64,000 bases of DNA from Bacteroidia bacterium (GCA_025054525.1 JANWZJ010000002.1:393-64392); one strand, 5' to 3'. Positions 6,129-49,000 are shown, counted from the first letter of the stretch. Numbers and translations are program-made. The notes: a model not told the origin generated them from the sequence alone.

Positions 6129-6149
6129 AGAGGAAAAACGCCTTTTCTC

Positions 6150-11668: not shown

Positions 11669-13356
11669 GGAGAACTCTGCGATTTCTCGTCGTGGCTTTG
11701 ACGCTTATCCTACTTTACCTTGTAGGACAGCGGTATTTCATTCGCATAGACCTAACCTCCGATAAAAAATATACCCTTTCTACTGGTACCAAAGACCTCC
11801 TGTATCGCTTGCCACAAGCAGTGTATATCACAGTTTATTTGGAGGGGGACTTCCCTTACCCAATCCAGCGTTTCAAGCGAGCCATAGAAACTACTTTGGC
11901 TGAGCTACGAGCCTTAGCTCCCAAGCCCTTTCACTATGAGTTCGTCAATCCCTCCCAATACCCCGAGCTGCTCAAAAAATTCAAACAGATGGGGGTCCAA
12001 CCCGTGCCTATCAACGTGCGCATCTCCCAAACGGAAACCCGTAAGCAGTATATGTATCCCCTTCTTTTGGCTCGCTGTGGAGGGGATGACATCTGGATAG
12101 ACCTGATTAAGGGACACATGCGCCCTTCTGGAGAAGTGGACCTTCTGGAAGCAGAACAGGAAGTAGAGTACAAAATCGCTTCGGCCCTGAGGCAGATTGC
12201 GGTTTTTGATGAGAAACCCTTGCTGGGCATCTTAGAAGGGCATGGCGAGTATTCGCTGAAGGAAATGCCCCAACTGGTCGCAGAGCTGAGCCGATTTTAC
12301 CGGCTATTGCCTGTGCGCGTGCGAGAAGGACAAGCGCTCGTTCCGGCCAAGGCTTACCTTCCTGACTCCCTGCGGAAAAAACTCAAAGGCGAGGGTTATG
12401 CTGCTATCTTGGTCATAGGTCCCGATAGTGCTTTCACCGAGAGAGAAAAATATGAGCTGGAGCAATATCTCTTCCGAGGAGGGCGAATACTATGGCTCGT
12501 GGACCAGCACCGCATCAATCTCAGCGAAGGCAGCGCCCTGACCCAACTGCGGGAGTTAGGTTTGGATGATCTCTTTTTCCGATGGGGATGGCGTCCTGGC
12601 TATGACCTCGTACAAGACCTTTCTTGCGGCTTCATTGAGGTGATTCAAAGCTACTATAACGGGCCCGTCTGGCAAGCTGAAAAATGGATATACTACCCCT
12701 TAGTTTATCTTTTCCCCTCTCACCCTGTCACGCGTACGATAGATGCGGTTTTGTACCGATACGCCGGAAGCGTGGATACTCTCCCCCGCAGTGGGGTAAA
12801 GCATACGATTTTGGCGGTGAGTTCGCCGCTCAGCCGATCCGTCAAAGGCACTCAAATTATAGATGTAAATCTGACTATACGCACTCCCCCTTCAGTTGAA
12901 AGCTTTCGGGGTAAGGGATTCCGTCCGATGGCGGTATTATCAGAAGGACGCTTTGAGTCGGTGTTTCAGGAACGGGAAGCTCCCACGGATAAATACGCTC
13001 CTACCCCCCCTACAGCCCGCTACCTTCCCGCCTCTGCTCTTCCTGGGAAGGTACTTTGGATAACGGATGGGGAGTTTGCCTTACCAGCCGAAGTGCGTGG
13101 CAGGGCAGCAGATTACGTCCCTCTGGATAACTTGACCTTCCTCCTCAACTGCATAGACTACCTGACAGGCGAAATCTCTCTAACCCAAGTACGCAGCCGC
13201 CGAGTACAACTGCGCAAACTTCGTCCGGACCTTCTGCGGAGCCATACCTTGGCTATTCAAGCCTTCAACTTAGGACTGCCGCTGGTAGTGATGATAGGAA
13301 CGGGAGTAGGTCTCTATCTTTGGCGCAGGAGAACCTATCGCCGTAAGCTATTATGA
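11665..13356 (+). CDS. gldG: Gliding-motility-associated ABC transporter substrate-binding/auxiliary protein GldG.
   Basis: 563 aa with N- and C-terminal TM anchors flanking a large periplasmic domain. It sits immediately after gldF with an ATGA overlap, which is the canonical gldF-gldG arrangement and size. Confidence 0.65.
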   Translation: MRRTLRFLVVALTLILLYLVGQRYFIRIDLTSDKKYTLSTGTKDLLYRLPQAVYITVYLEGDFPYPIQRFKRAIETTLAELRALAPKPFHYEFVNPSQYPELLKKFKQMGVQPVPINVRISQTETRKQYMYPLLLARCGGDDIWIDLIKGHMRPSGEVDLLEAEQEVEYKIASALRQIAVFDEKPLLGILEGHGEYSLKEMPQLVAELSRFYRLLPVRVREGQALVPAKAYLPDSLRKKLKGEGYAAILVIGPDSAFTEREKYELEQYLFRGGRILWLVDQHRINLSEGSALTQLRELGLDDLFFRWGWRPGYDLVQDLSCGFIEVIQSYYNGPVWQAEKWIYYPLVYLFPSHPVTRTIDAVLYRYAGSVDTLPRSGVKHTILAVSSPLSRSVKGTQIIDVNLTIRTPPSVESFRGKGFRPMAVLSEGRFESVFQEREAPTDKYAPTPPTARYLPASALPGKVLWITDGEFALPAEVRGRAADYVPLDNLTFLLNCIDYLTGEISLTQVRSRRVQLRKLRPDLLRSHTLAIQAFNLGLPLVVMIGTGVGLYLWRRRTYRRKLL

Positions 13357-14315
13357 CTAAGGGTACCCCTTGGGCTACGATAGGATTAGTGGTGGTGCTG
13401 CTTGCCGCCATAACGGCTGTGATATGGGGTAGCCGGATTGCCAATCAGCGAGCCGAAGCCGAAAGAAACTTTGCCTTCCCCGATACAGCCAATATCGTGG
13501 AGATACACTTAGTAGAGAAACATGCAGACACGATTCTGCGTCGCATAGATTTATATCGTCGCCCCAAGGGTTGGATTATTGCGGATACTTTGGAGGTTTT
13601 TGACCAGCCTCTGCAGACGCTTCTCTATACGCTGGCGAAACAAAAAGCCCGAGCTGCCGTTCCCAGCACTGCCCTCCGAAATGTGCTCAAGTTCCTCCAA
13701 GAACATCGGATAGAGGTAACTTTGGTCTTTCGGGATGGGCGTCACGAGGTTTTCTTTGTAGGCGGACCTACCCCTGACGAAAAAGCCTCCTATATGATAA
13801 AGCCTGGGCAGACCCAGCCTTATGAGGTTTATCTTCCTGGGCTGGAGGGTTATATCACCACGCGGTACTACGCGGATATAGGCGTATGGCAGCCTAATAA
13901 GATTTTTGAGGCTCGTATGGCGGACATCCGCTCCATCCAGATAGACTATGCCGGAGAGCCTGGAGAAAGTTGGCATTTAGAGCGTCCGCAGCCCGAGAGT
14001 GCATGGCAGCTCTCCTCAGGAGAACCGCTAGATTCCTTACGCGTCGCTGAATATCTCTCTGGGTTTACTGGCCCCTTCTACGCAGATGACTGGGTGCATC
14101 CTGACTCACTCATAGGCGCTGCCCCCTTGGCAGAAGTTGCATTAAAGCTATATTCGGGCAAAAACTATCGCTGGACAGTCTATAAGCACACTACGAGTCC
14201 TATCCATTACTACATTCGGTTATGGCACTCGCCCTACTTTACGTATACGATTAGCAGCTATCGTTTAGATGGCTTTCTGTATCGGCGCAGGCAGTTTATA
14301 AGGCAGCGGGCTTAG
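13353..14315 (+). CDS. DUF4340-like protein that commonly follows gldG. It has an N-terminal TM anchor.
   Basis: ATGA-coupled to gldG. The N-terminal membrane anchor and size fit the DUF4340 family usually encoded after gldG in Bacteroidetes. Confidence 0.45.
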   Translation: MTKGTPWATIGLVVVLLAAITAVIWGSRIANQRAEAERNFAFPDTANIVEIHLVEKHADTILRRIDLYRRPKGWIIADTLEVFDQPLQTLLYTLAKQKARAAVPSTALRNVLKFLQEHRIEVTLVFRDGRHEVFFVGGPTPDEKASYMIKPGQTQPYEVYLPGLEGYITTRYYADIGVWQPNKIFEARMADIRSIQIDYAGEPGESWHLERPQPESAWQLSSGEPLDSLRVAEYLSGFTGPFYADDWVHPDSLIGAAPLAEVALKLYSGKNYRWTVYKHTTSPIHYYIRLWHSPYFTYTISSYRLDGFLYRRRQFIRQRA

Positions 14316-15157
14316 AAGAACGCATATCCCAGCGCTAAGCCTATCCCCAAACCAGTAGCTCCTGCGATGGCAATCCACTTCCACGAGGAGACAGAGAGCG
14401 ACCCAGTGGGTATCCCTTCCACTTGAATAAGGATAAGTGTAGCATTATCATAGCCGCCCGCTTGTAGAGCAGCCTCTACGAGAGAACGGACTTTCTCTGA
14501 AGGAGTATTCTCTTTCTTTAGAAGATTTGCCAAATCTTCAAGGGAAAGCATATCCGAAATACCATCACTACACAGCAGAAGTATGTCTCCCCTTTGAAGG
14601 GGGAGGGGAAATGTAGGAGCTTCCACCATGAGAAACTCATCTCCTATGCCCAAGGCGAAAAGAATCTGATTACGGGCGGGGTGTGTCTCTGCCAGCTCGG
14701 GACGAAGAGCCCCCGATTCCACTAGCCAGGTAGTGAAGCGATGCCCCTGAGTCAGAGGATAGAGCGTATTTCCCCGTAGAAGATAAAGGGGCGAATCCCC
14801 CACACAAGCCCACCAAGCCTGTCCCGAAGGAGTAATCAGGAGAAGCGTAACGGTGGTACCAGAGACCGATTCGCCGTATTTTTTCTGAGAATAATCCTGT
14901 ATCTCCCTGTGGGCATAATGCAAAGCTCGGCGCAACCAGTAGCTAACTGGCTGAGAGGGATGACTCCGCTGCAGAAGGGCTTGAATCTTCTCGGTAGCCA
15001 ACGAAGCTGCGATTTCTCCGGCGGTACCTCCCCCCATTCCATCACATACGAGGAAGGCTTCTCCCAAGGGCGTGGTAAAAATGGCATATCGGTCCTCATT
15101 CTGAGGACGATGTAGTCCAATATGTGTCTCTGCAGCCCATGTATAAGGCTTCCTCAT
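14312..15157 (-). CDS. PP2C-family Ser/Thr protein phosphatase with a C-terminal membrane anchor.
   Basis: PP2C motifs DGMGGGTAGEIAS and LLCSDGISD, plus a terminal hydrophobic helix WKWIAIAGATGLGIGLALGYAFF. Confidence 0.7.
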   Translation of the reverse strand: MRKPYTWAAETHIGLHRPQNEDRYAIFTTPLGEAFLVCDGMGGGTAGEIAASLATEKIQALLQRSHPSQPVSYWLRRALHYAHREIQDYSQKKYGESVSGTTVTLLLITPSGQAWWACVGDSPLYLLRGNTLYPLTQGHRFTTWLVESGALRPELAETHPARNQILFALGIGDEFLMVEAPTFPLPLQRGDILLLCSDGISDMLSLEDLANLLKKENTPSEKVRSLVEAALQAGGYDNATLILIQVEGIPTGSLSVSSWKWIAIAGATGLGIGLALGYAFF

Positions 15158-22856: not shown

Positions 22857-23046
22857 ACGTCAAAAATAAGAACATCCCAGCACCCTCTCCACCCTTAGGT
22901 AACCTCAAGCCTAACTTTTTTCGTTGTATATTAGCATGAGTATGAGAAAGATATGGAAAGCCTTTGATCCCCGCGCTTCCAGCGCTCAACACCTTCAGGG
23001 TTCGAGCCGCTTCAATCTCCTTTTCATGCGCCGCACCAACTTCGTC

Positions 23047-24519
23047 TCACTTACCCTTTTCGTCTTGGGAGTCTTGCTCAAGCTGCTCTGGGAGGTTTTC
23101 GCCCGCAATTAGAGCAGGTGCGACCTGCCGCATGTAAGCATACGCCGCCTCAAACTCGTTTGGTATCTTACCATCCAGGATGGCTTCTCGTATCGCTTCC
23201 TTAATCCTGCCGACCAAGGGGCCAGGTGGTAACCCATACTCCTTCATAATAAGCTCACCTCGGATGGGTGGTTGAAACTGAGCCAATCTATCGCGCGCCT
23301 GGATTTCTCGCACGCGCTCCAGCACTTTCTGGAAGTTCTGCTGGAAATGGCGACGGCGCTGGAGATTTTGAGTCGTTACATCGCTTTGGCAGAGAAGAAT
23401 AAGGTCTTCCAAGGCTTCCCCTGCTTCTACTGCTAATCGGCGCAGAGCGCTATCGGTTACGCCCTCCTGTGCGAGGTGAGAGGGGCGTCCATGTAAGCGA
23501 ACGAGCTTCTCTACATATCGCATGCGTTCGTCCATCGGCAGCCGCAACCGCCGAAAAATATCTTTCACCATCCGAGCCCCTTTCTCCTCATGCAGGTGAA
23601 ACGTCCACCCTTGCTTCTCGTCAAATGATTTCGTGAGGGGCTTGCCTATATCATGCAGCAGTGCAGCCCAACGCAACCACAACGAAGCATCCGGCCTCTT
23701 CTCTAAAAGCTGCGATAATACAATCAGCGTATGCTGAAAATTATCTTTATGCTTGTGCCCTTTTTGGGTATTTACACCCGCTAATGCCGACACTTCTGGT
23801 AGGAACTGATGTAATAATGTCGTATTCCATAAGAGCTCTAATCCTCGCACCGGATTAGAACTGAGCAGGATTTTGTGGAATTCGTCTGTGATTCGCTCAG
23901 GAGAAACGATGGATAAGCGATGAGCCTGCTCGCGCAGCGCACGATAAGTCTTTTCTTCTATCTCAAAGCCCAAGCGTACTGCGAACCGAATCGCTCGTAG
24001 CATGCGCAGCGGATCATCCGAGAAAGTGCGGACAGGGTCTGTAGGCGTGCGGATGATACCCTGCTTCAGGTCGTGGATGCCTCCCCATTTATCCCAGAGG
24101 GCCCCCCGCTGCTGGGCATGCAGCCCCACATATAGAGCATTAACGGTAAAGTCGCGCCGCTCCGCATCCTCTTCTAAAGTGGCAGGTTCTACTCGGGGAT
24201 TCCGAGAAGAAGGAGTATAACTCTCTTTGCGGGTCGCCACCACTTCTATTTGATATTCTTTCCAAACTACTACTGCTACATAGAAGCGGCGATATTCCGC
24301 TGCCACATGAGTGCCTAACTTCTCTGCGAGTTTCTCCGCAAAAAGCGTAGGATTACCCAGCGTAACTACATCTATGGATTTAGAAGCACTGCCCGTGAGA
24401 AACCAGTCTCGAACCCACCCCCCTACAATATATGCAGGCTGATTTAGCTCATCGGCTGTTTCAGAGAGCACTTTGAGAAGAGGTTCGGTCTCCCACAGAC
24501 TCTGCGGAAGCCTTGCCAT
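23047..24519 (-). CDS. CCA-adding tRNA nucleotidyltransferase / poly(A) polymerase-family enzyme with a C-terminal HD domain.
   Basis: Pol-beta NTase head (YIVGGWVRDWFL, DFTVNALY), RNA-binding body, and an HD motif (…LHDIGK…). Confidence 0.75.
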   Translation of the reverse strand: MARLPQSLWETEPLLKVLSETADELNQPAYIVGGWVRDWFLTGSASKSIDVVTLGNPTLFAEKLAEKLGTHVAAEYRRFYVAVVVWKEYQIEVVATRKESYTPSSRNPRVEPATLEEDAERRDFTVNALYVGLHAQQRGALWDKWGGIHDLKQGIIRTPTDPVRTFSDDPLRMLRAIRFAVRLGFEIEEKTYRALREQAHRLSIVSPERITDEFHKILLSSNPVRGLELLWNTTLLHQFLPEVSALAGVNTQKGHKHKDNFQHTLIVLSQLLEKRPDASLWLRWAALLHDIGKPLTKSFDEKQGWTFHLHEEKGARMVKDIFRRLRLPMDERMRYVEKLVRLHGRPSHLAQEGVTDSALRRLAVEAGEALEDLILLCQSDVTTQNLQRRRHFQQNFQKVLERVREIQARDRLAQFQPPIRGELIMKEYGLPPGPLVGRIKEAIREAILDGKIPNEFEAAYAYMRQVAPALIAGENLPEQLEQDSQDEKGK

Positions 24520-24529
24520 ACTTAGAAAA

Positions 24530-25909
24530 TCACGCCATCTTTTCTGGCTTCACATACTGATCAAACTCTTCTGCCTTGAGGAAACCTAACTCTACGGCCG
24601 CTTCTTTGAGAGTTTTGTCTTCTTTGTGGGCTTTCTGGGCGATTTTGGCGGCTTTTTCATAGCCTATCACGGGATTGAGGGCAGTCACCAGCATGAGGCT
24701 CCGATCTAAATGGCGCTGAATAGCCCCCAGATTCGGTTCTATGCCTACGATGCAATTATCGGTGAAAGAATGGCAAGCATCCGCGACTAAGCGAATGGAC
24801 TCTAAAATATTGTGAATAATCAGCGGCTTGAAGACGTTAAGCTCCAGGTGCCCTTGGAAAGCCCCGCAAGTGATAGCGGTATCGTTGCCAATCACCTGGC
24901 AGCAGACCATGGTCATGGCTTCACTTTGTGTGGGATTGACTTTGCCGGGCATGATGGAGGAGCCGGGTTCATTTTCAGGAAGGTTGAGTTCTGCGAGTCC
25001 AGCCCGAGGCCCTGAGCCTAAAAGCCGAACATCGTTAGCGATTTTCATGAGAGCCACGGCGGTACGCTTCAAACTTCCTGAGAGAGCCACCAAAGCATCA
25101 TGCGCCGCCAGCACAGCGAACTTATTCGGTGCTGAGACGAAGGGATACCCTGTCAGTTCGGCTATTTTCCTCGCTACCTTCTCGGCGAAACCCGCTGGCG
25201 CATTCAGACCCGTTCCCACAGCCGTTCCGCCAAGGGCAAGCTCTGCTACTTGAGGTAGTACTTTTTCTATATCTTGGATACTGTCGGAGACTTGCTGGGC
25301 ATACCCGCCAAACTCCTGCCCCAAACGCATCGGTACAGCATCCATAAGGTGCGTACGCCCTACTTTGATGATTCCATGGAAGGCTTGGGCTTTTTCCGCC
25401 AGGGCTGCATGGAGCTTGCGAAGCGCAGGAAGCAAACGCTCTTGAACCGCTATGTAAGCCGCAATATGCATCGCAGTGGGAAAGACATCATTCGAAGACT
25501 GGGAACGATTCACATCGTCGTTAGGGTGAATGGGTTTCTTCGCACCGAGGGGCTGTCCTAACTTCTGATTAGCCCGATTGGCTATGACTTCATTTACATT
25601 CATGTTAGACTGGGTGCCCGAACCTGTCTGCCACACTACTAAAGGAAAATGCTCATCCCACTGCCCCGATAGAATCTCATCGCAAACCTCAGCGATAATT
25701 TTTGCTTTATCCTCAGGGAGGGAGCCCAGCTCTGCATTTGTGAGGGCTGCGGCTTTCTTAGCGATAACTAATCCATATATTACCTCCTTGGGCATGCGAT
25801 GCCCACCGATGCGGAAGTTTTGGAGAGAACGCTGAGTCTGCGCGCCCCAGAGTTTATCGGCAGGGACTTGTACTTCACCTAAGGTATCGTACTCTGTGCG
25901 GTAAGCCAT
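24530..25909 (-). CDS. fumC: Fumarate hydratase class II.
   Basis: N-terminus [23 protein letters not shown], the fumarase/aspartase signature [16 protein letters not shown], and a length of about 460 aa. Confidence 0.9.
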
Positions 25910-25931: not shown

Positions 25932-26681
25932 TCACTCTATCAGTCCTGAAGCCCGCAGAAAAGCTCGGAGATTAGGTGGAAGCGACTCAGGCTGTCCCAA
26001 CATAACCGCTTTAGAGCCGTGCCACTCCGCACGCCCATCATAGAGAAAAAGAATTTCCTCTCCCATATCTACCACGCTCTTGAGGTCATGGGTTACCACG
26101 ACAGTAGTAGTGTGAAACTCATAGGTGAGTTCTTGAATGAGCTCATCTATGCGCCGGGCTGTAAGCGGGTCTAAGCCTGAGTTGGGCTCATCACAGAAAA
26201 GGTATTGAGGATTGAGTGCAATCGCCCGCGCCAGTCCTACGCGCCGCTTCATACCACCCGAGATTTCTGCGGGATACTTATGCTGTATGCCTGCTAACCC
26301 TACTCGTTCCAAGCAATAGGCTACCCTGTCTTGTATCTCCTTTTCGGATTGCTCTGTGAAAACTCGTAGGGGAAAAGCCACATTTTCTCCTACATTCATG
26401 GAGTCAAAGAGGGCAGAAGACTGAAAAAGCATGCCTAAGTTTCGCAAAATACTGCGACGACTGGCAGGGTCCGTTCGTAAAAAATCTATTTTCCCAAACC
26501 ATACCTGCCCTTGCTCGGGCTGAATAAGCCCTACGATGCATTTGAGGAGTACGGTTTTGCCACAACCGCTGGGTCCTATGATCATATTTACCTTCCCAGG
26601 GTGAAAGAAAAACGATATATCATGGAGTACTCGCTGCTTCCCAAACCATTTAGAGATGTGCTCTATACGCAGCTCACTCAT
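25932..26681 (-). CDS. mlaF: ABC transporter ATP-binding protein, MlaF-like.
   Basis: Walker A GPSGCGKT, signature [14 protein letters not shown], Walker B LFCDEP. The start MSELRIEH is set at the internal Met that forms an ATGA overlap with the mlaE stop. The 344-aa ORF in the track is an artificial N-terminal extension. Confidence 0.75.
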
Positions 26682-27433
26682 AGTAGAAGCTGCGCCAGCA
26701 CATAATCGGCTACCAGTATCATGAGACAGCTTACTACGACTGCCCTTGTACTGGCAGCCCCTACTTCTAACGCTCCCCCCTTCACATAGTACCCCTGATA
26801 AGCTGAGACCGTAGAGATAATGAAGCCAAAAGTAACTGCTTTGATGAGCATGAAGACCAGCTGAAAAGGTTGAAAGAAGCCTCGCGCCCCAACTGCAAAC
26901 TGCGTAGGATTGACCGCACCCGTGAAAGCCCCCGCAATAATCCCCCCCGCATGGGCCACAAAGCAAGCATAGATAACTAAGATGGGAAAAGAAAAGAGAG
27001 CACCCAGTAACCTCGGCAAAACTAAGTAGGTTGCGGAGTTGATGCCCATCACCTCCAAGGCGTCTATCTGTTCGCTGACACGCATGGAGCCTATTTGGGA
27101 AGCGATATTAGAACCGATGCGTCCTGCCAGCACTAAGGAAGTTACGGTAGGGGCCAGTTCCAATATGGCTGAAGTAGAGACTATCGCACCAATAGTAGCC
27201 TTAGGAATAAAAGGTGATACAATCTGGTAAGCAGTTTGTACAGTAGTTACGGCTCCGACGAAGAAGGATATAATAGCCACTAAAAATATGCTATCGCGTC
27301 CCATCTGGATAGACTCTATCGTCCAAAGTTGCCAGTACAGTCGAAACCGCAGCAGGCCCGTGAAACTTCGGGCGAGCAACAAGAGATAGCGCCCTAAATC
27401 CTCAAATCCCTTCAAGAGTGGATTCAGATTCAT
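26678..27433 (-). CDS. mlaE: ABC transporter permease, MlaE-like (lipid-asymmetry maintenance).
   Basis: About 250 aa with five TM helices. The MlaE-typical topology and position immediately upstream of mlaF support the call. Confidence 0.7.
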   Translation of the reverse strand: MNLNPLLKGFEDLGRYLLLLARSFTGLLRFRLYWQLWTIESIQMGRDSIFLVAIISFFVGAVTTVQTAYQIVSPFIPKATIGAIVSTSAILELAPTVTSLVLAGRIGSNIASQIGSMRVSEQIDALEVMGINSATYLVLPRLLGALFSFPILVIYACFVAHAGGIIAGAFTGAVNPTQFAVGARGFFQPFQLVFMLIKAVTFGFIISTVSAYQGYYVKGGALEVGAASTRAVVVSCLMILVADYVLAQLLL

Positions 27434-29054
27434 ACCAGTTCTCTTGGCTGAGGAGTAAGGGTAAATGCACAGTAAAGTTTGTATAGCCGGGTCGGCTCTC
27501 TACAGAGAAGCGCCCTTTATGCTTTTCTACAATCCGCCGACAAATATCCAGCCCTAAGCCTGTTCCTTCTCCTTTGGGCTTGGTCGTGAAGAAAGGCTCA
27601 AAAATCCGAGGCAAAATCTCCTCCGGGATACCCGGCCCCGAATCAATAAAAGATACCTGTATCTCGTCTGCATGCTTGCGTACTTCTATGGTAAGCTCTC
27701 CTTTCCCTTGCATCGCTTGGATGGCATTTTGCAGAAGATTAGTCCAGACTTGGCTTATCTCATCTGAAAAGAGATATAAGATGGGGAGCTCGGCATCATA
27801 ATGCGTCCGAACCGCTATTCCCTGCTTGAGCTGATTGTGATATAACACGAGGATGGTCTCTACAGACTCCTCTAAGGAGGTAGGTACGGGTTTGCCTCGC
27901 TCGGAGGTGTGGGCATAGCTTTTGAGGGCGAAGACGGTTTTTCGGGTGCGATTGGCTGCAAGGAGTATATTATCCAGTTGTAGGCGAAGCTGCCCAATCA
28001 GATAGATAAGCTCCACTCCATCCTGTATTTGGAGCAGGGGTAAGAGCGGCGATAAATCTTCAACGAAAATCCCTGCCTCTACTAACCTTCTTGCTGTCGT
28101 TTCAGCTTGTTCTTCGGGTAGAGTGGTACTGAGCAAAGCGAAGTACTTTTTGCGCAGGGCTCTCTCCTCCCGAGAAGTCAGGGTAGGATGCTCAGGAATA
28201 CGAAGGTATTCTACGAGAAAAGAAAGGGCTTGCTGCATAGCCGGCCAGTCCGTTCCACCCAACGCCAACAAAAGCTGCCATAAGGTGGGAATAGTCTCAA
28301 TCAGGGTTTCTGCTGAACCTTTGATGGCACCAAGGGGACTGTTGATTTCATGGGCGACGCTGGCTACGAGCTGACCCAACGCCGCCATCTTCTCAGAAAG
28401 AATAAGCTGCTGCTGAGTGGATTGGAGTTCATTCAGGGCTTTCTCTAACTCCATCGTGCGCTGGCGCACGCGATCTTCCAAAGAAGCATTGAGTTGGCTA
28501 AGCTCTTTTTGCATGGCGCTGAGTCGCATGAGATTTTCCTCTAAGCGGCGATTTTGTTTGCGTTGGAACTCTAATAGCCTTCGGATGCGCTCCTGCTGCA
28601 GCACGCTACTGAGCAACATCCCGAAGAAAGTAGCATTTTCCTCAAGCCAGCGCTTTTCTGCTTCTTCCAGCTCTCTCCATAGCAGGGTTTCTAAGACCGC
28701 CCAGGTGCGCTCTTGATACACCCACGGATAAACCCAATATGCCACAGGATGCACCTCTGCCAGCCCTAAGCCTCCCTTTACTTCGGCGCGTATTGGATAA
28801 AGAAGGGCTCGTCGCTGCCGAGCTGCTTCTCCTACTATTCCCTCCCCGTGCCGAATGAAAGGAAAATCCTTAGCCACGACAGCATAAGTAGCGATTCGCT
28901 CGAATACCCTTTCTTCCGTCTCTCCATAAAGTACGGCTGCCCATAACGGCACATAGTCCCGCAGAAGGTAGAGAAAGCGTTTGCCCCAACTTTCTAAGGT
29001 GTCTTCGGGACGCCAGGCCAGTTCGCTGGTGAAGATATAGCCAGTATATTCCAC
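27402..29054 (-). CDS. Cytoplasmic sensor histidine kinase with an N-terminal GAF domain, coiled coil, HisKA and HATPase_c.
   Basis: GAF motif GIVGEAA, H-box HEINSPLGAIKGSAE, and G-boxes GTGLGLDICRRIV. There is no TM helix. Confidence 0.7.
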   Translation of the reverse strand: MEYTGYIFTSELAWRPEDTLESWGKRFLYLLRDYVPLWAAVLYGETEERVFERIATYAVVAKDFPFIRHGEGIVGEAARQRRALLYPIRAEVKGGLGLAEVHPVAYWVYPWVYQERTWAVLETLLWRELEEAEKRWLEENATFFGMLLSSVLQQERIRRLLEFQRKQNRRLEENLMRLSAMQKELSQLNASLEDRVRQRTMELEKALNELQSTQQQLILSEKMAALGQLVASVAHEINSPLGAIKGSAETLIETIPTLWQLLLALGGTDWPAMQQALSFLVEYLRIPEHPTLTSREERALRKKYFALLSTTLPEEQAETTARRLVEAGIFVEDLSPLLPLLQIQDGVELIYLIGQLRLQLDNILLAANRTRKTVFALKSYAHTSERGKPVPTSLEESVETILVLYHNQLKQGIAVRTHYDAELPILYLFSDEISQVWTNLLQNAIQAMQGKGELTIEVRKHADEIQVSFIDSGPGIPEEILPRIFEPFFTTKPKGEGTGLGLDICRRIVEKHKGRFSVESRPGYTNFTVHLPLLLSQENWYESESTLEGI

Positions 29055-29055
29055 C

Positions 29056-29451
29056 TTACCTTGCTAAGGCTCGTTGTATCTCACAGATAAGCTGCTGACG
29101 ATCCCAGGGCTTTCGGATAAACGCAGAGAGGTTCGCATAACGCTGAGCTCTCTCAATCGCAGAATCATCCGCATATGCGGAGAGCATGATTAGCTTGATG
29201 TCTGGATATTCCTGAGCGACGCGAATCAGAAAGGCATCGCCTTTCTCTTGGGGCATGAGCCAGTCTGAAATCAATAATACAATCCGACGCTGATGCTGCC
29301 GATACTCTTGAATCAGTTCCCAGGCTTCCTCGGCACTTTGAGCCGTTTCGTAATCATACTTCTCCCCGAAAGCCGCTCGGGATTGCACCACCAGTGTATC
29401 TAACACCATCTTCTCATCATCTACAAATAGAAGAAGGGGTTTTCCGTTCAT
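29056..29451 (-). CDS. Stand-alone CheY-like receiver-domain response regulator (paralog 2).
   Basis: DDE at the N-terminus, phospho-acceptor Asp in LLISDWLMP, IMLSA, and KPW. Confidence 0.75.
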   Translation of the reverse strand: MNGKPLLLFVDDEKMVLDTLVVQSRAAFGEKYDYETAQSAEEAWELIQEYRQHQRRIVLLISDWLMPQEKGDAFLIRVAQEYPDIKLIMLSAYADDSAIERAQRYANLSAFIRKPWDRQQLICEIQRALAR

Positions 29452-29840
29452 CCTTCCAGAGCTTTTTGTATAAGCTGCATAAGCTGCTCTTTATCCCAAG
29501 GTTTGGCAACGAAGGCGAGAATATTCGCATCTTTTTGGGCTCGTTCTACTGCCTCGGGGTTAGCTTGCCCAGAGAGCATAATCAGGGCTACCTCAGGAAA
29601 GCGACGATGCACACGCACTAAAAACTCATCTCCTTTGACTCGGGGCATAAGCCAGTCGCAAATAATCAAATCTACATTTTCCCCCTCTGCATATACTTCA
29701 TCAATAAACTCCTCTGCCTCCTCAGCGCTCGTGAAAGATTCATACAGATACTTATTCCCAAAGGTCTGATAGAGCTGCCCCATGAGTGTATTAAGAACGA
29801 CCTTTTCATCATCCACACAGAGGATGCGTTTCTTAGGCAT
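29448..29840 (-). CDS. Stand-alone CheY-like receiver-domain response regulator (paralog 1).
   Basis: Phospho-acceptor Asp in LIICDWLMP, IMLSG, and KPW. It is clearly paralogous to 29056..29451 at both protein and DNA level. Confidence 0.75.
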   Translation of the reverse strand: MPKKRILCVDDEKVVLNTLMGQLYQTFGNKYLYESFTSAEEAEEFIDEVYAEGENVDLIICDWLMPRVKGDEFLVRVHRRFPEVALIMLSGQANPEAVERAQKDANILAFVAKPWDKEQLMQLIQKALEG

Positions 29841-29864
29841 GAAGGCAGGGCAAAAGTACAGGTT

Positions 29865-30929
29865 TTATTGCAACGAGGAGAGCCGCTCGCCGTATTGCCG
29901 CTGGAAGTATTCTTGATAAGCACCGGAGCGTACCCGCTCTAACCAGCTCCCATTTGCCCGGTACCACTGTATAGTTTGGCGCAGCCCTTCTTCAAAGGAC
30001 ATATGCGGTTTCCATCCCAGCTGATGCAGCAAAGGTGAAGGACATATGGCATACCGAAAATCATGCCCAGGTCTGTCTTGAACAAAGGTGATGAGCCGAT
30101 CGGAGTCTTTTTCTCCTGTAATCTCGTCGTATAATGAGCAGAGAAGCTGCACTACTTCTATGTTGGGGCGGCAGTTCTGGGCGCCGATGAGGTAGGTACG
30201 CTGACGCGGTGCCTTTTCCATAAGCAGCACAATAGCCCGCACATGATCTTCCACATATATCCAATCACGCATGTTCTGCCCTTGACCGTAGACGGGGATG
30301 GATTTGCGCTCTATTAGACGAGAGATAGTCAGAGGAATCAGCTTCTCAGGAAACTGGAAAGGGCCGTAGTTATTACCACAATTGCTGATAAGATAAGGAA
30401 TGCCATAGGTATGCCCATACGCCCGCACAAAGTGATCCGCAGCCGCTTTAGAAGCAGAATAAGGACTACGGGGATCATAAGCACTTCCCTCCGTGAAGAA
30501 TCCCTCTTCGCCTAAGCTGCCATATACTTCATCGGTAGAGACTTGGTAGAAGAGGACATCGCTTCTTCCTTGCCAGTACTGCCTAGCGTGTTCCAAAAGG
30601 GTAATAGTGCCTAAGACATTCGTATGAACGAAATCCATCGGTGAAAGAATACTGCGATCTACATGGCTTTCCGCAGCTAAGTTGAGAATAATATCGGGTG
30701 GCGCTTCATGCCACAGCCGTTGAACAGCTGAAGCATTCGCTATATCTATCTTATGAAAGGTATGATTAGCAGCGGGGAGAACATCAGCAAGATTCTCTAA
30801 GTTTCCCGCATAAGTAAGGGCGTCCAGCGTATGGATGCGATAGCTGGGATATTCCCGCACTAAATACCGCACTAAATGGCTTCCTATGAAACCAGCACCC
30901 CCTGTAACCCAGACCGTACGCATGCGCAA
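29865..30929 (-). CDS. rfbB: dTDP-glucose 4,6-dehydratase.
   Basis: Rossmann motif VTGGAGFIGSH, catalytic YxxxK (YSASKAA), and a length of about 350 aa. The start may be the third Met at 30923. Confidence 0.85.
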   Translation of the reverse strand: MRMRTVWVTGGAGFIGSHLVRYLVREYPSYRIHTLDALTYAGNLENLADVLPAANHTFHKIDIANASAVQRLWHEAPPDIILNLAAESHVDRSILSPMDFVHTNVLGTITLLEHARQYWQGRSDVLFYQVSTDEVYGSLGEEGFFTEGSAYDPRSPYSASKAAADHFVRAYGHTYGIPYLISNCGNNYGPFQFPEKLIPLTISRLIERKSIPVYGQGQNMRDWIYVEDHVRAIVLLMEKAPRQRTYLIGAQNCRPNIEVVQLLCSLYDEITGEKDSDRLITFVQDRPGHDFRYAICPSPLLHQLGWKPHMSFEEGLRQTIQWYRANGSWLERVRSGAYQEYFQRQYGERLSSLQ

Positions 30930-30955
30930 AGGTAGTGTATCTATCTTTGTCCTAC

Positions 30956-36728: not shown

Positions 36729-38000
36729 TTACATTGGTTCATAGCTGTGGTGAACACTCTCCTCTAAATAGGGATGATGCTGGGGTAGCAGAGCGGGCGC
36801 TTTCTCAAGCTGTTTAGCCGCTAACCATAGAAAGCCTCCAATCCCCAGGAGAAAGAAGCCTACCTCCATAAGGCCCAGGCCACCTGCTTTTCCTGCTACG
36901 GAGGGCATAACCACCATAAACGTGTCCAGCCAGTGCGTAAAGAGCAAAACTCCTGATACAATCCCCAGCCATGTGAAGTTTCGCTTGATGCTGGCGCTCA
37001 TAAGCCCAAGCAGCGGGAAGATGAAATTCATGACCAACGTGATAAAGAAGATAGGAACATACTGAGGATTCACATGCGCACGGATACGCTGATAAAACCA
37101 GAAAGTCTCCTCGGGGATGTTTGAGTACCAAATGAGCATAAACTGCCCATAAAAGATATACGTCCAAAAGATACTAAATGCAAAGACGAATTTACCCAAG
37201 TCGTGGATATGGCTCTCGCTAACCCCACTGAGATAACCATTTTTCTTCAGGATAATCGCAGTGAATGTAATGAGACAGAGCGTGGTTATCCAAAGATTAG
37301 CGAAATTATAGACGGCGAACATCGTACTAAACCAGTGGGGTGAGGCACTCATGAGCCAATCCCAGCTTGCTACAGACCAGCTTAGCGCAAAGAACACGAT
37401 AAATCCGCCGGCAAGCCGGCGCAGATTGTGGAAGTTGCGCACATCCCCGGTGGCATCTAATGTTTCCCAGTTGCGCACGAATCCCCGCCAGAAAAGAAGC
37501 CACCCCCCTAAAATAATCACCATACGAACGATGAAGAAGGGAAGGTTGAGGTAGCCACTTTTGTGCTGAAGGACCTCGTCTTTAGAGACCACATCGCTGT
37601 GCGTCCATTCATATAAAACCCCTGAGAATGCTATAGCCACCACCGCCAAAAGACCCGCAGTAATAGGTAAGAGCCGAGCGAAAGTCTGTGGTATTCTTTG
37701 TAGCATCACGTACCAGCTTGCATTAGCGGCATATCCTACCGCCAGGAAGAACAGAGAAAGAATAGGGATGCCTAAGAGATACATAGAAGAGATGAGAAGG
37801 TTTGCCGAGAGGCGGCTGAGCCAAGGGGCTGCATGATGACCTTCTGCATGTTCGTGAGTACCCATCATCTGGCTGATAAGCCCAGCTATGACTAGAAGTC
37901 CTCCCACCCCCACCATCAAGGTTACCCACCTACGCAAATGAGGGGGGAAAGTAAAGCGTTCTTTCCAGTTTACTGTATGAGAGGTATGCCCGTGTGCCAT
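36729..38000 (-). CDS. actF: Alternative complex III subunit ActF (NrfD/PsrC-like membrane subunit).
   Basis: Polytopic membrane protein paralogous to ActC, in the terminal position of the act cluster. Confidence 0.7.
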   Translation of the reverse strand: MAHGHTSHTVNWKERFTFPPHLRRWVTLMVGVGGLLVIAGLISQMMGTHEHAEGHHAAPWLSRLSANLLISSMYLLGIPILSLFFLAVGYAANASWYVMLQRIPQTFARLLPITAGLLAVVAIAFSGVLYEWTHSDVVSKDEVLQHKSGYLNLPFFIVRMVIILGGWLLFWRGFVRNWETLDATGDVRNFHNLRRLAGGFIVFFALSWSVASWDWLMSASPHWFSTMFAVYNFANLWITTLCLITFTAIILKKNGYLSGVSESHIHDLGKFVFAFSIFWTYIFYGQFMLIWYSNIPEETFWFYQRIRAHVNPQYVPIFFITLVMNFIFPLLGLMSASIKRNFTWLGIVSGVLLFTHWLDTFMVVMPSVAGKAGGLGLMEVGFFLLGIGGFLWLAAKQLEKAPALLPQHHPYLEESVHHSYEPM

Positions 38001-38003
38001 AGG

Positions 38004-38609
38004 TTATTGAGATTGTTTAGTGGAGTTGGCTTCTTCCTGAAGGCCTTGAGCTCGTAGCTGCTGCACATATAGAATAACCTTCCAACGCTCTTCAGGGGTA
38101 AGCTGAGAAGCATGAGAACCCATGAGGTTTTTACCATAGGTGATACTATGAAACATCTTCCCTTCGGGTAAATCTTTGAGCTGAGGCCCATAGTAAGAAG
38201 GTACTTGGGGATATTTCCCTTTCTCTACGATAGTTCCCCTACCGTTTCCTTTTTCGCCGTGGCAGTGAATACAATAATACTCATAGAGTTTCTTCCCTTC
38301 ACTTATGTTCTCAGGCGTGGGAGGGAGGGGGTTTTTGAGCTTTTTGCCTGCTTCCTCATATCCTTCATTCGTATTGGGGAATGGATAGACGAAATCTGCC
38401 TTACCCTTAGGTACGGTACCTGCCACGGGCTCTCTAACATGTTTGCCATCTGAGGAGTAGGTATAGTAGTCGGTCTGAGAATAAGGGTCCAAAGGAATAG
38501 AGTGATACATCTGAGGAGCGTATTCTATGCCTGTATCTCTGGGGTCAGAGGCAGCACAGCCCCAAAGGATGAATGCAGTAAGCGCTAATAACCAGGAGTA
38601 CCCTATCAT
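38004..38609 (-). CDS. actE: Alternative complex III subunit ActE (monohaem cytochrome c, lipoprotein-like).
   Basis: Single CIHCHG haem-binding motif, an N-terminal signal with Cys, and correct operon position. Confidence 0.7.
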   Translation of the reverse strand: MIGYSWLLALTAFILWGCAASDPRDTGIEYAPQMYHSIPLDPYSQTDYYTYSSDGKHVREPVAGTVPKGKADFVYPFPNTNEGYEEAGKKLKNPLPPTPENISEGKKLYEYYCIHCHGEKGNGRGTIVEKGKYPQVPSYYGPQLKDLPEGKMFHSITYGKNLMGSHASQLTPEERWKVILYVQQLRAQGLQEEANSTKQSQ

Positions 38610-39112
38610 ATCTCTATGATCTTGATGTCAGTAGCACCAGTTTTACGAAAAACCTCCTGAGCCCGATCCCATGCGCTTTCTTCGGCAATCGCCACGACCA
38701 TCGCGTCATCTGTCTGACGCACATCATATACTTTAGCTTTTCTACCAGGATAAAGGCGATTGACGAATAGATAGGAGAAAAACATAAGCACTCCTGCAAA
38801 AAGCACGGTAAGCTCAAAGGTTACGGGAATAAAGCTCGGAAAAGGCAAGAAGGATTTCCCCCCTATATTGACACGCCAATCTATGTTATACATGTAGGTC
38901 TGCATGCTGAGAGCCGTGAGCGTACCCATCGCTCCATACACGAAGGCTGCGTCGGGCAAGCGAGATTTGCGCAGATGAAGAGCAGAGTCCAGACCATGTA
39001 CAGGAAAGGGCGTGCATACTTCATGGATAGGCACTTTCTCTCGCTGGAGAGCTTCCACACCTACAAGTAACTTCTCCTCATCTTCATATAGCCCGATAAG
39101 GTACTTCGCCAT
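38606..39112 (-). CDS. actD: Alternative complex III subunit ActD.
   Basis: At about 168 aa it is a membrane-associated protein between actC and actE, consistent with ActD. Confidence 0.6.
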   Translation of the reverse strand: MAKYLIGLYEDEEKLLVGVEALQREKVPIHEVCTPFPVHGLDSALHLRKSRLPDAAFVYGAMGTLTALSMQTYMYNIDWRVNIGGKSFLPFPSFIPVTFELTVLFAGVLMFFSYLFVNRLYPGRKAKVYDVRQTDDAMVVAIAEESAWDRAQEVFRKTGATDIKIIEI

Positions 39113-39118
39113 AGACTA

Positions 39119-40573
39119 TCAAGTTGTAGAGGATTCAGGGTTCATGGCAGGTTGAAGCACGGGAGCGAAAGCACCCTCCCGCTTTTTAGCTTGATAGGTT
39201 TCCCAGGAGAGTCCTGCATATTGATCGCCCGAAGTCTTGAGAATGCTCTTTGTTTCAGCGGCTGCGATTACAGGCAGGAATCGCGCAAACAAGAGATACA
39301 GCGTGAGGAATAGCCCAAAGCTGCCTACCAATATCGTAACCTCCACCCAAGTAGGCGTGTACATGCGCCAAGAAGAAGCCAAAAAATCGCGATGTAGCGA
39401 GGTTACGATAATCACAAAGCGCTCAAACCACATGCCGATATTCACGAAGATAGAGATGACAAAAACGAACCATGGACTGCGACGCAGCTTTTTGAACCAG
39501 AAGACCTGGGGGATAAAGAGATTACAAGTTACCATAGCCCAGTAGGACCACCAGTAAGGACCGAAGGCTCGGTTTAGGAAGATGTAGCGCTCCCAGTAAG
39601 AGCCAGAATACCACGCAATAAAAAACTCCGTAGCATAGGCAAAGCCCACCATCATACCGGTAGCCAAGGTTACTTTTGCCATGGCGTCTATGTGCTCCAG
39701 AGTGATGTAATCCTTGAGGTCAAGCACTTCTCGGGTAATGATCATGAGTGTGAGCACCATTCCGAAGCCGGAGAAAATAGCGCCTGCCACGAAGTAAGGA
39801 GGAAAAATGGTAGTGTGCCACCCAGGTAGGATAGAGGTGGCAAAGTCAAAACTCACGATAGAGTGCACGGAAAGCACCAGCGGCGTAGAGAGCCCTGCCA
39901 GTACCAGAGATACCGCTTCAAATCGTTGCCATTGTTTGGCACTGCCGGTCCAGCCGAAAGAAAGGATACTATAAGCTATGTGGGCAAAGCTACCAGGGCG
40001 AGCCCTATCGCGCACCATCGCCAAATCAGGAATAAGGCCCGTATACCAAAAGAGCAAGGAGATGGTGAAGTAGGTGCTGATTGCGAAAACATCCCATAGC
40101 AGAGGAGAGTTGAAGTTGACCCAGAGGGAGCCGTGAGTGTTGGGCAGGGGCAAAAACCAGAACGCTAGCCATGGACGCCCCATGTGAATGATGGGAAAGA
40201 GCCCTGCACAAATAACTGCGAAAATCGTCATTGCTTCGGCAGCCCGATTAATCGCCATGCGCCAGCGCTGCCGGAAAAGCAAAAGAATTGCCGAGATAAG
40301 CGTACCCGCATGCCCGATACCTATCCAGAAAACGAAGTTCGTAATGTCAAAAGCCCAGCCTACGGTTTTGTTGAGGCCCCAAGTACCGATGCCTACCCAT
40401 ATGGTATAAGCTATCGCCGAAAACCCAGCAAACATGACGAGGGCCGTGAAACCCGTAGTGAGGTACCATTTCCAGCTGGCAGGTCCCAAGATGGGAGAGA
40501 CTAAGTCATCCGTGATTTTGCGGTAGGTTTTCCGCCCTGTGATAAGCGGTTCTCGTATAGGGCTCTCAAACAT
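39119..40573 (-). CDS. actC: Alternative complex III subunit ActC (NrfD-family quinol-interacting membrane subunit).
   Basis: About ten TM helices, polysulfide-reductase NrfD-like, following actB. Confidence 0.8.
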
Positions 40574-40575
40574 AG

Positions 40576-43500
40576 TTATGCGGGTTTAGGTTGTGAGATT
40601 TCTTCGTTGCGGACTTTGACCATATACCGGATGGAGGGGCGAACGTTGAGCTCAGCAAGTGCATAGTAGCCACGCGGTTCTTGGGAGAGGCGACTGACAA
40701 GGCTTTCGGGATCGTTGAGATCACCGAAGACAATAGCGCCAGTTGGGCATGCCTGCTGGCAAGCAGTTTTGACATCTCCCTCTTTCAGGGGACGCTGCTG
40801 CTTCTTTGCTTCCAGCTTAGCGGCTTGGATACGCTGCGTACAAAAGCTGCACTTCTCCATTACGCCCCGAGCCCGCACGGTTACGTCAGGATTAAGAACC
40901 ATGCGGCCCAACTCATCCACAGGATTGAAGACCCAGCTCTCCGAGTTAGTATAATCAAACCAGTTGAAGCGTCGTACCTTGTAAGGGCAGTTGTTAGCAC
41001 AATAGCGGGTACCTACGCAGCGGTTATAGACTTGTTGATTGATGCCTTCGGAGCTATGGGCTATAGCCAAAACAGGACAAACCGTCTCACAGGGGGCATG
41101 ATCACAGTGCTGACATAGCATAGGTTGGAAAAATGCCCGCGGAAAGTCTTCTGGGGATGCTGCGGGAAACTCTTCTGGTTTGCCTGTGTGCCCTACCGTG
41201 GAGGTAAAGTAGCGGTCAATCCGAATCCAGTGCATGTCCCGACCACGACGCATTTCGTCCCGACCTACGACAGGGATATTATTTTCGGCGACACAGGCCA
41301 CTACGCAAGCCCCACAACCTATGCACAGATTGAGGTCAATCGCCATGCCCCAACGGTGTCCAGGTTGTGGGTGCTCTATCCACCACAGATTGATAAGTTC
41401 AGGCTCTTCGTGATTGCCGGCACGAGGATTTTGCTTATAGGCGCTGAGCGTCGTCTCCCGAATATACTCCCGTCCTACATAGGTCTCCCACTGCTGGATT
41501 CGAGCCAGCTCATAGGTACCACCTGTTTTTTGAAGTTGTATAGCAGGTAGGAAACTTATGCGATTACCAGATTCAGTTATTTGGAGGAAAGGGTAAATGT
41601 TTTGTCCAACCCCCACGGCTGCTCGTCCACCTGTTGTGCGGCCGTACCCCATCGCCACCCCTATGGTGCGGGGCGCCGTTCCCGGCAAAACATACACGGG
41701 TAGCTCTACCGACTTATCTCCTGCCGTAATCCGAATGACATCATTCGTCTTGAGTCCCTGCTCGCGTGCCAAAAGCGGAGAGATGACGGCATAGTTATCC
41801 CAAGCCACACGAGATACAGGGTCTGGCATCTCTTGAAGCCAGGGATTACCCGCATTCGTGCCGTCGCCTATGGCCACTTTCTCATAGACGTACAAGGTTA
41901 GAGGCACTTCATCCTCCATAGAAGGAAGCTGAGCAGCCCACTGAACAGGGTTCCAGTTTGCTTTGGGAGCAGCCGAGACGGAGGTCATATCCACTACACC
42001 TCTCTCCAGAGCATGCAGCCAGAATGTCTCAGCGTTATCAGTAGGCAGAGGAGGCTCAGTGGATACCCAGAAAGCCTGCTGCTTGCCTTTCTCCTTGTCT
42101 CGGAGGTAGGCCTGGTAGGCAGGGTACACAGACTTTTCCCAGAAAGCCTTCAGATAATCCAGTGTGCTCTCACCGCGCCCAAGCCATGCCAAGAGTATCT
42201 CTGCAAAAGAACGAGTGGAAAATATGCGGGCAATTGTAGGCTGCTGCAGCGTAAATAAGCCTTCATAAGGTTGCGCATCTCCCCAGCTCTCTAAATAATG
42301 ATCCTCGGCTAAAATGTATTTGCAGCGCTTGGCTGTCTCATGAGCATGAGTAGAGATTGCGACAGTAATGGGGGATTTTTCTATCGCTTGTGCCACCCTA
42401 TCGCTCTGGGGATGATCATAGAGGGGATTAACCTGATGGAAAATAACAGCACCCACCTTACCTTCCTGCGCATCCTTAAGAAAGGTTTCAAAATCCGCAT
42501 CTTTTCCTGCACGCAAGTAGCAGCCTGGGTCTACATATAAGGTATTTCCGTAACTCTCTAAGAGCAAGTTGATACCTACGACTACAGCTTGAAGCACAGG
42601 GATTTGGGCATGGGCAACTACGAGTGCTTTGCCTCGGCTTTCCCAGAGCTTCTTGGCTACATGTGATATATCACCATTGGCCGTGTCCCATTTATCGCTG
42701 TTGAGTGAGGGCTGTCCAGCCAACTCAGCTATGCGATTATAGAGGTTGATGATGGCACGGCGCACCTCTTGGGGATTGAGCGCTATACGGCGGTCCGCAC
42801 TGAGTCCCGTAATCATGGGTACAGACTCAAACTGCACATGATAAGATATATCATTGCGCCCACCGTACAACTTGCGGTTCTCAGACCACTGACGCGCGAA
42901 AGTGGTGGGGTCTATCCATGTACCTAAAAAGTCAGCATTGAGCCCCACTACCACCTGCGCTTTATCAAAGCGGTAAGTAGGGAGTACCCTACGACCAAAA
43001 ACCGCCTCATGGGCACTCAAAATAGCATCATATGAAATGGCTGAGTACTCCACATGACGAGCATTTTTGAGGGAGCCCTGCCATGCTTGAATAAGACTGC
43101 GCAAACTGGGACTTACCACAGGAGGGGTTATGAGATAAATCAGCTTCCCTTGGGTATCCTGCGCCTTTAGCTGCTCCATTAGGGCACTTCCAAGTGCAGA
43201 CCAATCTGACTCTTTGCCTTCTATGAGTGGCTTTTGAAGCCGAGTGTGGTCATACAAGGAAAGAACAGAAGCCTGTCCCCGTGGATGAGTACCACCTCCT
43301 TGGGGCGAATAAGATGGGTTGCCTTCTATCTTAATAGGACGACCCTCCCGTACCTTGACAAGGACTGATTGAAAAATTTGACCATCAAAGTAGGAGGAGG
43401 CATAATACGTGGGTATCGTGGGAAGGTGTTCAGCTGGTTTTTTGACGTAAGGCAGCGCATACTTGACAGGGGTTTTTTCACATGCTGCTAATACCGCTGC

Positions 43501-43602
43501 ACTGAGCGTAATCCCACACCAGCGCAGGAAATCCCTGCGATCTCCTCGCAGGGATTCGGAGAGTAGCTCTTCTACAGGAATATCGCGAGAAAGCTCTTGC
43601 AT
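40576..43602 (-). CDS. actB: Alternative complex III subunit ActB (fused molybdopterin-oxidoreductase-like and 4Fe-4S ferredoxin-like domains), Tat-exported.
   Basis: Tat motif RRDFLRW, a large MopB-like domain, and C-terminal Cys clusters ([25 protein letters not shown], CxxCxxRIQ). 1008 aa. Confidence 0.85.
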
Positions 43603-43603
43603 C

Positions 43604-48972: not shown

Positions 48973-49000
48973 AACGCATAAATAATTCTACCTTTGGGTC

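Follow-up and report, generated by a model that had tools for sequence, protein, structure and literature searches.

A cassette of five genes was examined in a 64-kb window of DNA from a Bacteroidia bacterium, and was compared with the GenBank annotation of the matching metagenome-assembled contig JAVQWH010000002.1 (GCA_033579115.1). The genes, all on the minus strand, encode in order two stand-alone receivers (response regulators RR1 and RR2), a soluble sensor histidine kinase (HK) and the permease and ATPase of an Mla-type ABC transporter (MlaE and MlaF), with rfbB upstream and fumC and a CCA-adding/poly(A) polymerase gene downstream (Table 1). With moderate confidence, we read the cassette as a two-component module that lacks a transcriptional output, is branched and lies in an operon with the MlaE/MlaF transporter genes. 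As an earlier note on this DNA had claimed, no output-domain regulator was found in the array, either among the window open reading frames (ORFs) of at least 90 aa that were scanned or in the source-contig annotation.

From rfbB to the CCA-adding gene, the intergenic distances are 24, -4, 1, -32, -4, 22 and 10 nt. The ATGA-style packing described in the earlier note applies to the RR1/RR2 (-4) and mlaE/mlaF junctions, but not to RR2/HK, where TAAgGTG leaves a 1-nt gap. The co-directional run into mlaE and mlaF and the 32-nt HK/mlaE overlap that it reported were both seen, and within the locus no other feature proved as well conserved as this run. GenBank starts mlaE 18 nt later, which would reduce the overlap to 14 nt; several relatives align with MlaE from residue 1, fitting the longer form.

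Table 1. Features of the receiver-kinase-mlaEF array and its neighbors, in window coordinates.
Feature	Coordinates	Strand	Remarks
rfbB (dTDP-glucose 4,6-dehydratase)	30923..29865	-	TIGR01181 433 bits; upstream neighbor
-7 box TACTTTTG	29851..29858	-	fits TAnnTTTG; ends 10 nt 5' of RR1 ATG
RR1	29840..29448	-	130 aa, stand-alone receiver; Pfam Response_reg 64.2 bits
RR1 D62 phospho-acceptor codon	29657..29655	-	
RR2	29451..29056	-	131 aa, stand-alone receiver; Pfam Response_reg 52.9 bits
RR2 D63 phospho-acceptor codon	29265..29263	-	
HK, soluble sensor histidine kinase	29054..27402	-	550 aa, GTG start
HK residues 1-125, divergent GAF-type sensor domain	28680..29054	-	
HK residues 131-268, long signaling helix into DHp helix 1	28251..28664	-	
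HK H235 phospho-acceptor codon (HEINSPL)	28352..28350	-	
HK residues 270-341, helical insert in DHp hairpin	28032..28247	-	LTSxEERALRKxY, R298 invariant
HK residues 346-381, DHp helix 2	27912..28019	-	
HK residues 390-541, catalytic ATP-binding domain	27432..27887	-	HATPase_c 102 bits
mlaE, Mla-type ABC permease	27433..26678	-	251 aa; Pfam MlaE (PF02405) 224 bits
mlaF, ABC ATPase	26681..25932	-	249 aa; ABC_tran 110 bits
fumC	25909..24530	-	downstream of mlaF
CCA-adding/poly(A) polymerase gene	24519..23047	-	downstream of fumC

The order RR1-RR2-HK-mlaE-mlaF was found in 16 of 16 independent full-length related loci, and three shorter contigs carry HK-mlaE-mlaF; the closest relatives bear the isolate names of hot-spring metagenome-assembled genomes. 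Across the 16 loci, median aa identity to the window was 86% for RR1, 75% for the faster-evolving RR2, 59% for HK (47-62% across cassette loci), 84% for MlaE and 79% for MlaF. The constraint on RR1 is thus close to that on a housekeeping enzyme (88% for fumC, 6 loci), which would fit a protein with several binding partners. The junctions are conserved as well, with a 4-nt RR1/RR2 overlap in all 14 loci where it could be placed, a 26-32 nt HK/mlaE overlap at all 12 of the 16 loci with a placeable mlaE start, and an mlaE/mlaF distance of -4 or 0 in 15 of 16 relatives. Most relatives have an RR2-HK spacer of about 100 nt (e.g. loci L005, L008, L009, L010, L015, L016 and L044), which in the window is collapsed to 1 nt. 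The neighbors rfbB, fumC and the CCA-adding gene are common to the closer relatives only: L005/L044 and L006 have other genes on both flanks of the cassette, and in L011 the fumC and CCA-adding genes are inverted and lie upstream of it. A cognate DNA-binding regulator was sought just outside the array, as the earlier note had proposed, and none adjoins the cassette in the 16 related loci. In a metagenome scan with MlaE, the kinase gene lay upstream in all eight loci at 80-86% identity, as did the receiver genes on contigs long enough to show them, whereas the approximately 29 loci with a full-length MlaE match of ≤55% were all bare mlaE-mlaF pairs, none with a kinase, set among unrelated genes (short-chain dehydrogenase, PorZ, CHAT). 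This indicates that the kinase-mlaEF fusion is a derived feature of one clade.

A scan of the window for sigma-70 promoters and terminators gave nothing above chance and was set aside; the Bacteroidota sigma-A -7 box, TAnnTTTG at -12 to -5 (PMC9723704), was informative instead. The window contains 41 such boxes (29 ± 5 expected), of which 15 lie at same-strand ORF starts (about 1.4 expected). From the box before RR1, a 5' leader of roughly 6 nt is expected, and an exact box starts 12-18 nt before RR1 in 14 of the 17 cassette loci, a count that takes in the window contig. Boxes also precede rfbB (30934..30927) and prfA in the window, and rfbB, with this box of its own and absent upstream in L005, L006, L044 and L046, was rejected as a member of the conserved unit; of the synteny rfbB-RR-RR-HK-mlaEF suggested previously, the five-gene part therefore stands without rfbB. 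No coding-strand box was found in the window immediately before RR2, HK, mlaE, mlaF, fumC or the CCA-adding gene, the other minus-strand boxes of the array lying only inside the RR1 and mlaE coding regions, and no terminator-like site was found between array genes on the coding strand. No box stood immediately ahead of mlaE in any of the 17 cassette loci, whereas 11 of 14 bare mlaEF loci have one in the 105 nt preceding mlaE. Within the clade, mlaEF are therefore expressed from the kinase or receiver promoters; since in the window the junctions overlap or abut and mlaE lacks its own box, all five genes are placed here on one translationally coupled transcript. On this sequence evidence, obligatory co-expression of the receivers and HK with mlaEF is firmly supported for the cassette clade. 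In this genome fumC and the CCA-adding gene, 22 and 10 nt further downstream, are probably read through, as neither box nor terminator intervenes.

Both receivers have Response_reg as their sole Pfam match (PF00072, cut-off 30.2 bits; scores in Table 1), and alignment to Escherichia coli CheY (acid pocket D12/D13, D57, T87, K109) placed the catalytic residues at D10/D11, D62, S90, F110, K113 and P114 in RR1 and at D11/D12, D63, S91, F111, K114 and P115 in RR2. This confirmed the earlier description of two adjacent receiver-only proteins of about 130 aa with conserved Asp, Ser and Lys-Pro. The acid pocket, phospho-Asp, Ser, aromatic switch, Lys and Pro were invariant in 12 RR1 and 12 RR2 orthologs, so that a pseudo-receiver lacking the Asp or Lys, an identity raised as a possible objection, was rejected for both proteins. 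By their residues, RR1 and RR2 are firmly supported as active-type receivers predicted to be competent for phosphorylation.

The RR1 and RR2 proteins share 52% aa identity over 126 residues without gaps (E = 4e-45). The DNA-level likeness pointed out in the earlier note is present, including the shared match GACTGGCT[T/C]ATGCCCC, which codes for DWLMP; it carries no sign of a recent duplication, however, and with 54.5% identity overall, 33% at third codon positions and a longest exact run of 10 nt it is the likeness imposed by protein conservation. In a neighbor-joining tree (no bootstrap), the RR1-type and RR2-type proteins of the Bacteroidota loci L033 and L037 joined the respective RR1 and RR2 clades. 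Because both types thus have their own orthologs in other Bacteroidota, the duplication is taken, from these sequences, to be old and to predate the cassette clade. The genes are adjacent paralogs, as the term "tandem duplicated" implied, but the event was not recent, and recent tandem duplication or gene conversion was rejected on the third-codon identity, the short exact runs and the separate clades. Nine positions are fixed differently in the two proteins, including the residue after the conserved Ser (Gly in RR1, Ala in RR2). RR1, RR2 and their relatives share a conserved helix 1 (DDEKxVLxxL), near-identical between the two receivers; helix 1 of a receiver is the surface read by the kinase.

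The nearest sequence relatives of RR1 and RR2 are not CheY but the receivers of HD-GYP (RpfG-type) and HupR regulators. The best PDB matches were the HD-GYP regulator receivers 2rjn and 3hv2 (E = 9e-14), the NosR-family model NCBIfam NF053512 scored 92 and 80 bits with RR1 and RR2, and the CheY family model (NCBIfam CheY_Halo) reached only 29 bits against a cut-off of 200. These affinities speak against the receivers being CheY-type motility switches, for gliding for example, fed by HK. The idea has some appeal in that some sources label the orthologs "CheY-like chemotaxis protein" and the window holds gldF/gldG-like genes and type IX secretion cargo, the organism probably being a glider; yet HK is of the HisKA type and not a CheA, and no CheA, CheW or chemoreceptor gene was found in the loci examined (source contig, L003, L005 and L006), so that we regard a motility switch as highly improbable.

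HK retains what a histidine kinase requires. The N (439), G1 (471), F (485) and G2 (497) boxes of its HATPase_c domain are all intact and are invariant among 44 homologs, as are H235, E236, N238 and P240 of the AHEINSPL motif in the DHp helix. The H box aligns with that of ZraS, which together with ThkA provides the closest solved chains. The Pfam HisKA match (26.3 bits, cut-off 26.9; residues 226-254, profile positions 2-30 of 66) is partial because an insert interrupts the DHp hairpin. These features firmly support HK as a HisKA-type kinase that is predicted to be competent. The absence of a transmembrane segment, reported previously, was confirmed by a maximal 19-residue hydropathy of 1.24, compared with 2.36 in MlaE. 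The GAF domain attributed to HK by the earlier note is below threshold in HK itself (GAF_2, 19.6 bits against 28.6, E = 1e-3), but the assignment gains from 32 of 44 family members matching GAF_2 (best E = 6e-13) and from an AlphaFold model in which residues 1-125 form a compact GAF-like alpha/beta domain, mostly at a predicted local distance difference test (pLDDT) score >90. Further along, the models (pLDDT 85 for the whole protein and 90 for residues 205-400) have an unbroken helix over 131-268, then at 270-341 a small bundle of helices, and after it DHp helix 2 and the ATP-binding domain. The receiver-reading surface of HK (E221-G242), which includes the stretch just after the phospho-His, is invariant or nearly so in the 44 sequences, and this, with the conserved receiver helix 1, is consistent with a single conserved kinase-receiver pairing.

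The insert in the DHp hairpin, of about 75 residues, carries LTSxEERALRKxY and an invariant R298 and occurs in every aligned homolog down to 37% identity. Fold searches with the modeled DHp plus insert found no specific match among solved structures, those with the whole HK returned standard kinases only, and phmmer with a 90-residue insert query against 1.8 billion representatives gave four hits only, a search too insensitive for family size to be read from it. HK belongs to a large, unstudied subfamily whose insert is shown by no solved kinase structure; the component parts of the cassette are standard. A conserved helical insert could serve as a docking surface, and MlaFE might then be the input, the soluble kinase docking on the transporter and reading its activity, much as Bce-type kinases have an ABC transporter for their sensor, while the receivers carry the signal away. 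Such a role would suit a kinase without a membrane or periplasmic sensor whose gene is the one most tightly coupled to mlaE, by overlap and shared promoter. Nevertheless, the insert and the GAF domain are kept across the whole subfamily, mostly away from mlaEF, and hence are not specific to MlaFE, and the GAF domain already supplies a sensor; we consider a transporter input quite improbable.

MlaE is well matched by Pfam (Table 1) and falls below the cut-off of TIGR00056 (171.8 bits against 212). MlaF, by score a generic ABC ATPase (NCBIfam NF008809, 168.9 bits against an equivalog cut-off of 441), is so named because its gene follows mlaE. When MlaF of the window was aligned with those of L005, L006, L047, L052, L054, L058, L060 and L065, the cassette-clade proteins ended some 6-18 residues earlier in the alignment than those of bare mlaEF loci and had an insertion of 2-5 residues (P-ESLPP) before the last conserved stretch. 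In E. coli, the C-terminal extension of MlaF forms a dimer "handshake" and contacts MlaB (PMC7367683). The early end of cassette-clade MlaF, together with the precedent of the receiver EpsW discussed below, would fit a switch in which phosphorylated RR1/RR2, or HK through its DHp insert, binds MlaF/MlaE and gates assembly or ATPase activity, although we judge this specific mechanism unlikely. The corresponding analogy, that a receiver/HK switch would do in these Bacteroidia what MlaB and the MlaF handshake do in E. coli, is put forward just as tentatively. If true, it would be the first case of a two-component system controlling phospholipid transport between membranes at the level of the protein and not of transcription.

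The earlier note had suggested a phospho-sink, a branched phosphorelay or a CheY-like output in place of a classical transcriptional system; the lack of a transcriptional output is supported, and the sequence would fit any of the three. In the branched-module reading favored here, the kinase would use its GAF domain to sense a ligand in the cytoplasm and would phosphorylate both receivers. RR1 would be an effector or connector acting by binding other proteins, and RR2 would form a second branch, either as a phosphate competitor (sink or modulator) or with a partner of its own. The gene order suggests a functional tie between the kinase/receiver signal and MlaFE lipid transport: with HK, mlaE and mlaF retained as one inseparable block, MlaFE-dependent envelope lipid transport is what the signal would most likely be tied to, as output or as input.

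Several observations weigh against this reading. MlaD is needed for a working Mla transporter, and no MlaD/MCE gene was found in the window (scanned ORFs and contig annotation), within 8-10 kb in L003, L005 and L006, or adjoining bare mlaEF in other Bacteroidota. An E. coli MlaD query gave no tblastn hits, a result that is weak given the evolutionary distance. In the relatives sampled, mlaE and mlaF normally occur as a pair with no mlaD, and mlaD may be encoded elsewhere in the genome. Four residues after its phospho-His, HK has a Ser at the position that in other HisKA kinases holds the Thr/Asn linked to phosphatase activity. Of the 17 loci, nine have a second box placed 14-17 nt ahead of the start of HK (eight in the RR2-HK spacer), and in relatives RR1-RR2 and HK-mlaEF can thus be two distinct units. 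Tight packing is general in this genome, where rfbB, fumC and the CCA-adding gene also lie 10-24 nt away, and since the cassette is found in one clade only, its conservation could be inherited gene order. Kinase homologs of about 40% identity have one or two receiver genes after them, and not mlaEF; large GAF/PAS proteins often precede them, and SpoIIE/PP2C genes sometimes follow. RR1-like receivers of 60-70% identity also occur elsewhere in Bacteroidota, far from mlaEF, whether as a paired RR1-RR2 orphan, as a lone orphan or next to a TPR kinase. As kinase and receivers both occur away from mlaEF, the module has no need of MlaFE.

Outside the clade, the kinase-receiver module is often found in multi-kinase settings. 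L018 (483-8567), from a Coleofasciculaceae cyanobacterium, encodes a kinase that shares the DHp-insert core but has a receiver replacing GAF; the gene order is dCache hybrid kinase, insert kinase, stand-alone RR1-like receiver and REC-PAS hybrid kinase. L018 was rejected as a locus with two stand-alone receivers, as the second forms the N-terminal part of a hybrid kinase of 928 aa. Its layout, and in this the likeness consists, resembles the cyanobacterial dpx operon (PMC13492139), which, consisting of kinase, receiver and hybrid kinase, was rejected as an instance of the present architecture. Proteins of 175-177 aa without a Pfam match adjoin the kinase in L033 (5388-5921) and L036 (7759-8286) and could be an unrecognized accessory protein; in both loci SpoIIE genes stand right after the receiver genes, hinting at a link to a partner-switching phosphatase.

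These settings bear on whether the module is genuine but its link to mlaEF a case of operon hitch-hiking, the receivers acting elsewhere, which we hold to be possible though somewhat unlikely. The receivers might then, at a similarly restrained probability, serve other kinases as phosphate shuttles or allosteric connectors (a hub or sink of the MrrA/LovR or DivK kind) or act on PP2C partner-switching phosphatases. Hitch-hiking would account for RR1-like receivers found as orphans or with other kinases, for the multi-PAS/GAF proteins and SpoIIE/PP2C genes flanking distant kinase relatives, for a cyanobacterial receiver placed between a REC-controlled kinase and a hybrid kinase, and for the tight packing genome-wide; a stand-alone PP2C and a Y_Y_Y-SpoIIE protein of 1203 aa are also encoded in the window. 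It fits less well with an HK/mlaE overlap at every placeable junction (12 of 16 loci), with an mlaE that has no box of its own in cassette loci and with a cassette that stays intact where both flanks are rearranged. Should the mlaEF link be inherited gene order only, the locus would hold an ordinary orphan-output two-component system. Post-translational regulation of Mla-type transporters is an open question, with almost nothing known for Mla in Bacteroidota, and an mlaEF pair without its own promoter, coupled to a soluble kinase, is a natural place to test signaling to or from the transporter.

Elsewhere in the window, a stand-alone PP2C/SpoIIE phosphatase is encoded at 14312-15157 (-), the 1203-aa Y_Y_Y-SpoIIE protein at 55240-58851 (-) and an orphan HisKA kinase at 53904-55169 (+). 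A gldF/gldG-like ABC-2 permease with auxiliary genes (ABC_transp_aux, DUF4340) occupies 10934-14315 (+) and type IX secretion C-terminal-domain proteins 4211-8774 (-), both pointing to what is probably a gliding member of the Bacteroidota. A co-directional run at 36729-44782 (-), annotated on the source contig with ActD and c-type cytochrome domains and including a multihaem cytochrome (43604-44782), looks like an alternative complex III cluster. No RNA family of Rfam was matched in the window. The -7 boxes very often end only 3-10 nt before the start codon, as at 48989-48996 (+), 50845-50852 (+), 62245-62252 (-), 22861-22868 (-), 58849-58856 (-) and 29851-29858 (-). With the box at -12 to -5, such spacing implies that leaderless or nearly leaderless mRNAs are numerous in this lineage; for Flavobacterium psychrophilum the reported figure is 5.5% (PMC9723704).

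Among known systems, a literature search of incomplete coverage returned nothing describing a two-component system in an mla operon or the DHp insert. Close parallels are branched systems. In Sinorhizobium, one kinase reportedly serves two stand-alone receivers, CheY1 and CheY2, with a phosphate sink. Synechocystis PixL reportedly has the antagonistic regulators PixG and PixH (PMC11181946), and in the Caulobacter LovK/LovR system LovR is a sink and MrrA a phosphate hub (PMC5964349). The cassette resembles these systems in having one kinase and two intact receivers without a DNA-binding domain, whose output would therefore be through protein contacts or phosphate competition. It differs in that HK is a soluble GAF/HisKA-type kinase with a DHp insert and not a CheA, that chemoreceptor, CheW and HPt genes are absent, that the module sits in a transporter operon, and that RR1 and RR2 belong to the KPW (RpfG/HupR-like) receiver group. 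The xKPW motif is shared with HD-GYP (RpfG-type) receivers, but RR1 and RR2 end after helix 5 and have no HD-GYP domain.

Bce-type modules pair a two-component system with an adjacent ABC transporter that acts as the sensor of the kinase; their kinases are membrane proteins, their regulator is an OmpR-type DNA-binding protein and their transporter is BceAB (FtsX-type). The present locus is similar in placing kinase and regulator genes directly upstream of ABC transporter genes and in a kinase without an extracellular sensor, but it is not Bce-type, having a soluble kinase, regulators that lack an output domain and MlaE as its permease.

For a receiver acting on an envelope protein, a precedent is EpsW of Myxococcus xanthus, a stand-alone receiver whose phosphorylated form binds an envelope-biogenesis membrane protein post-translationally and activates this membrane enzyme by promoting its dimerization (PMC12802240). 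EpsW differs in receiving its phosphate from a chemosensory kinase and in having a phosphoglycosyl transferase as its target (PMC12802240); a contact of RR1 or RR2 with MlaFE would be the putative counterpart here. In E. coli MlaFEDB, the ATPase of MlaE/MlaF is controlled by MlaB, a small cytoplasmic STAS subunit encoded in the same operon, and phosphoregulation of MlaB has only been hypothesized (PMC7367683). The window, by comparison, has no MlaB, MlaD or MlaC, and the receiver fold differs from STAS; conversely, the E. coli mla operon has no kinase, while the cassette described here has one.

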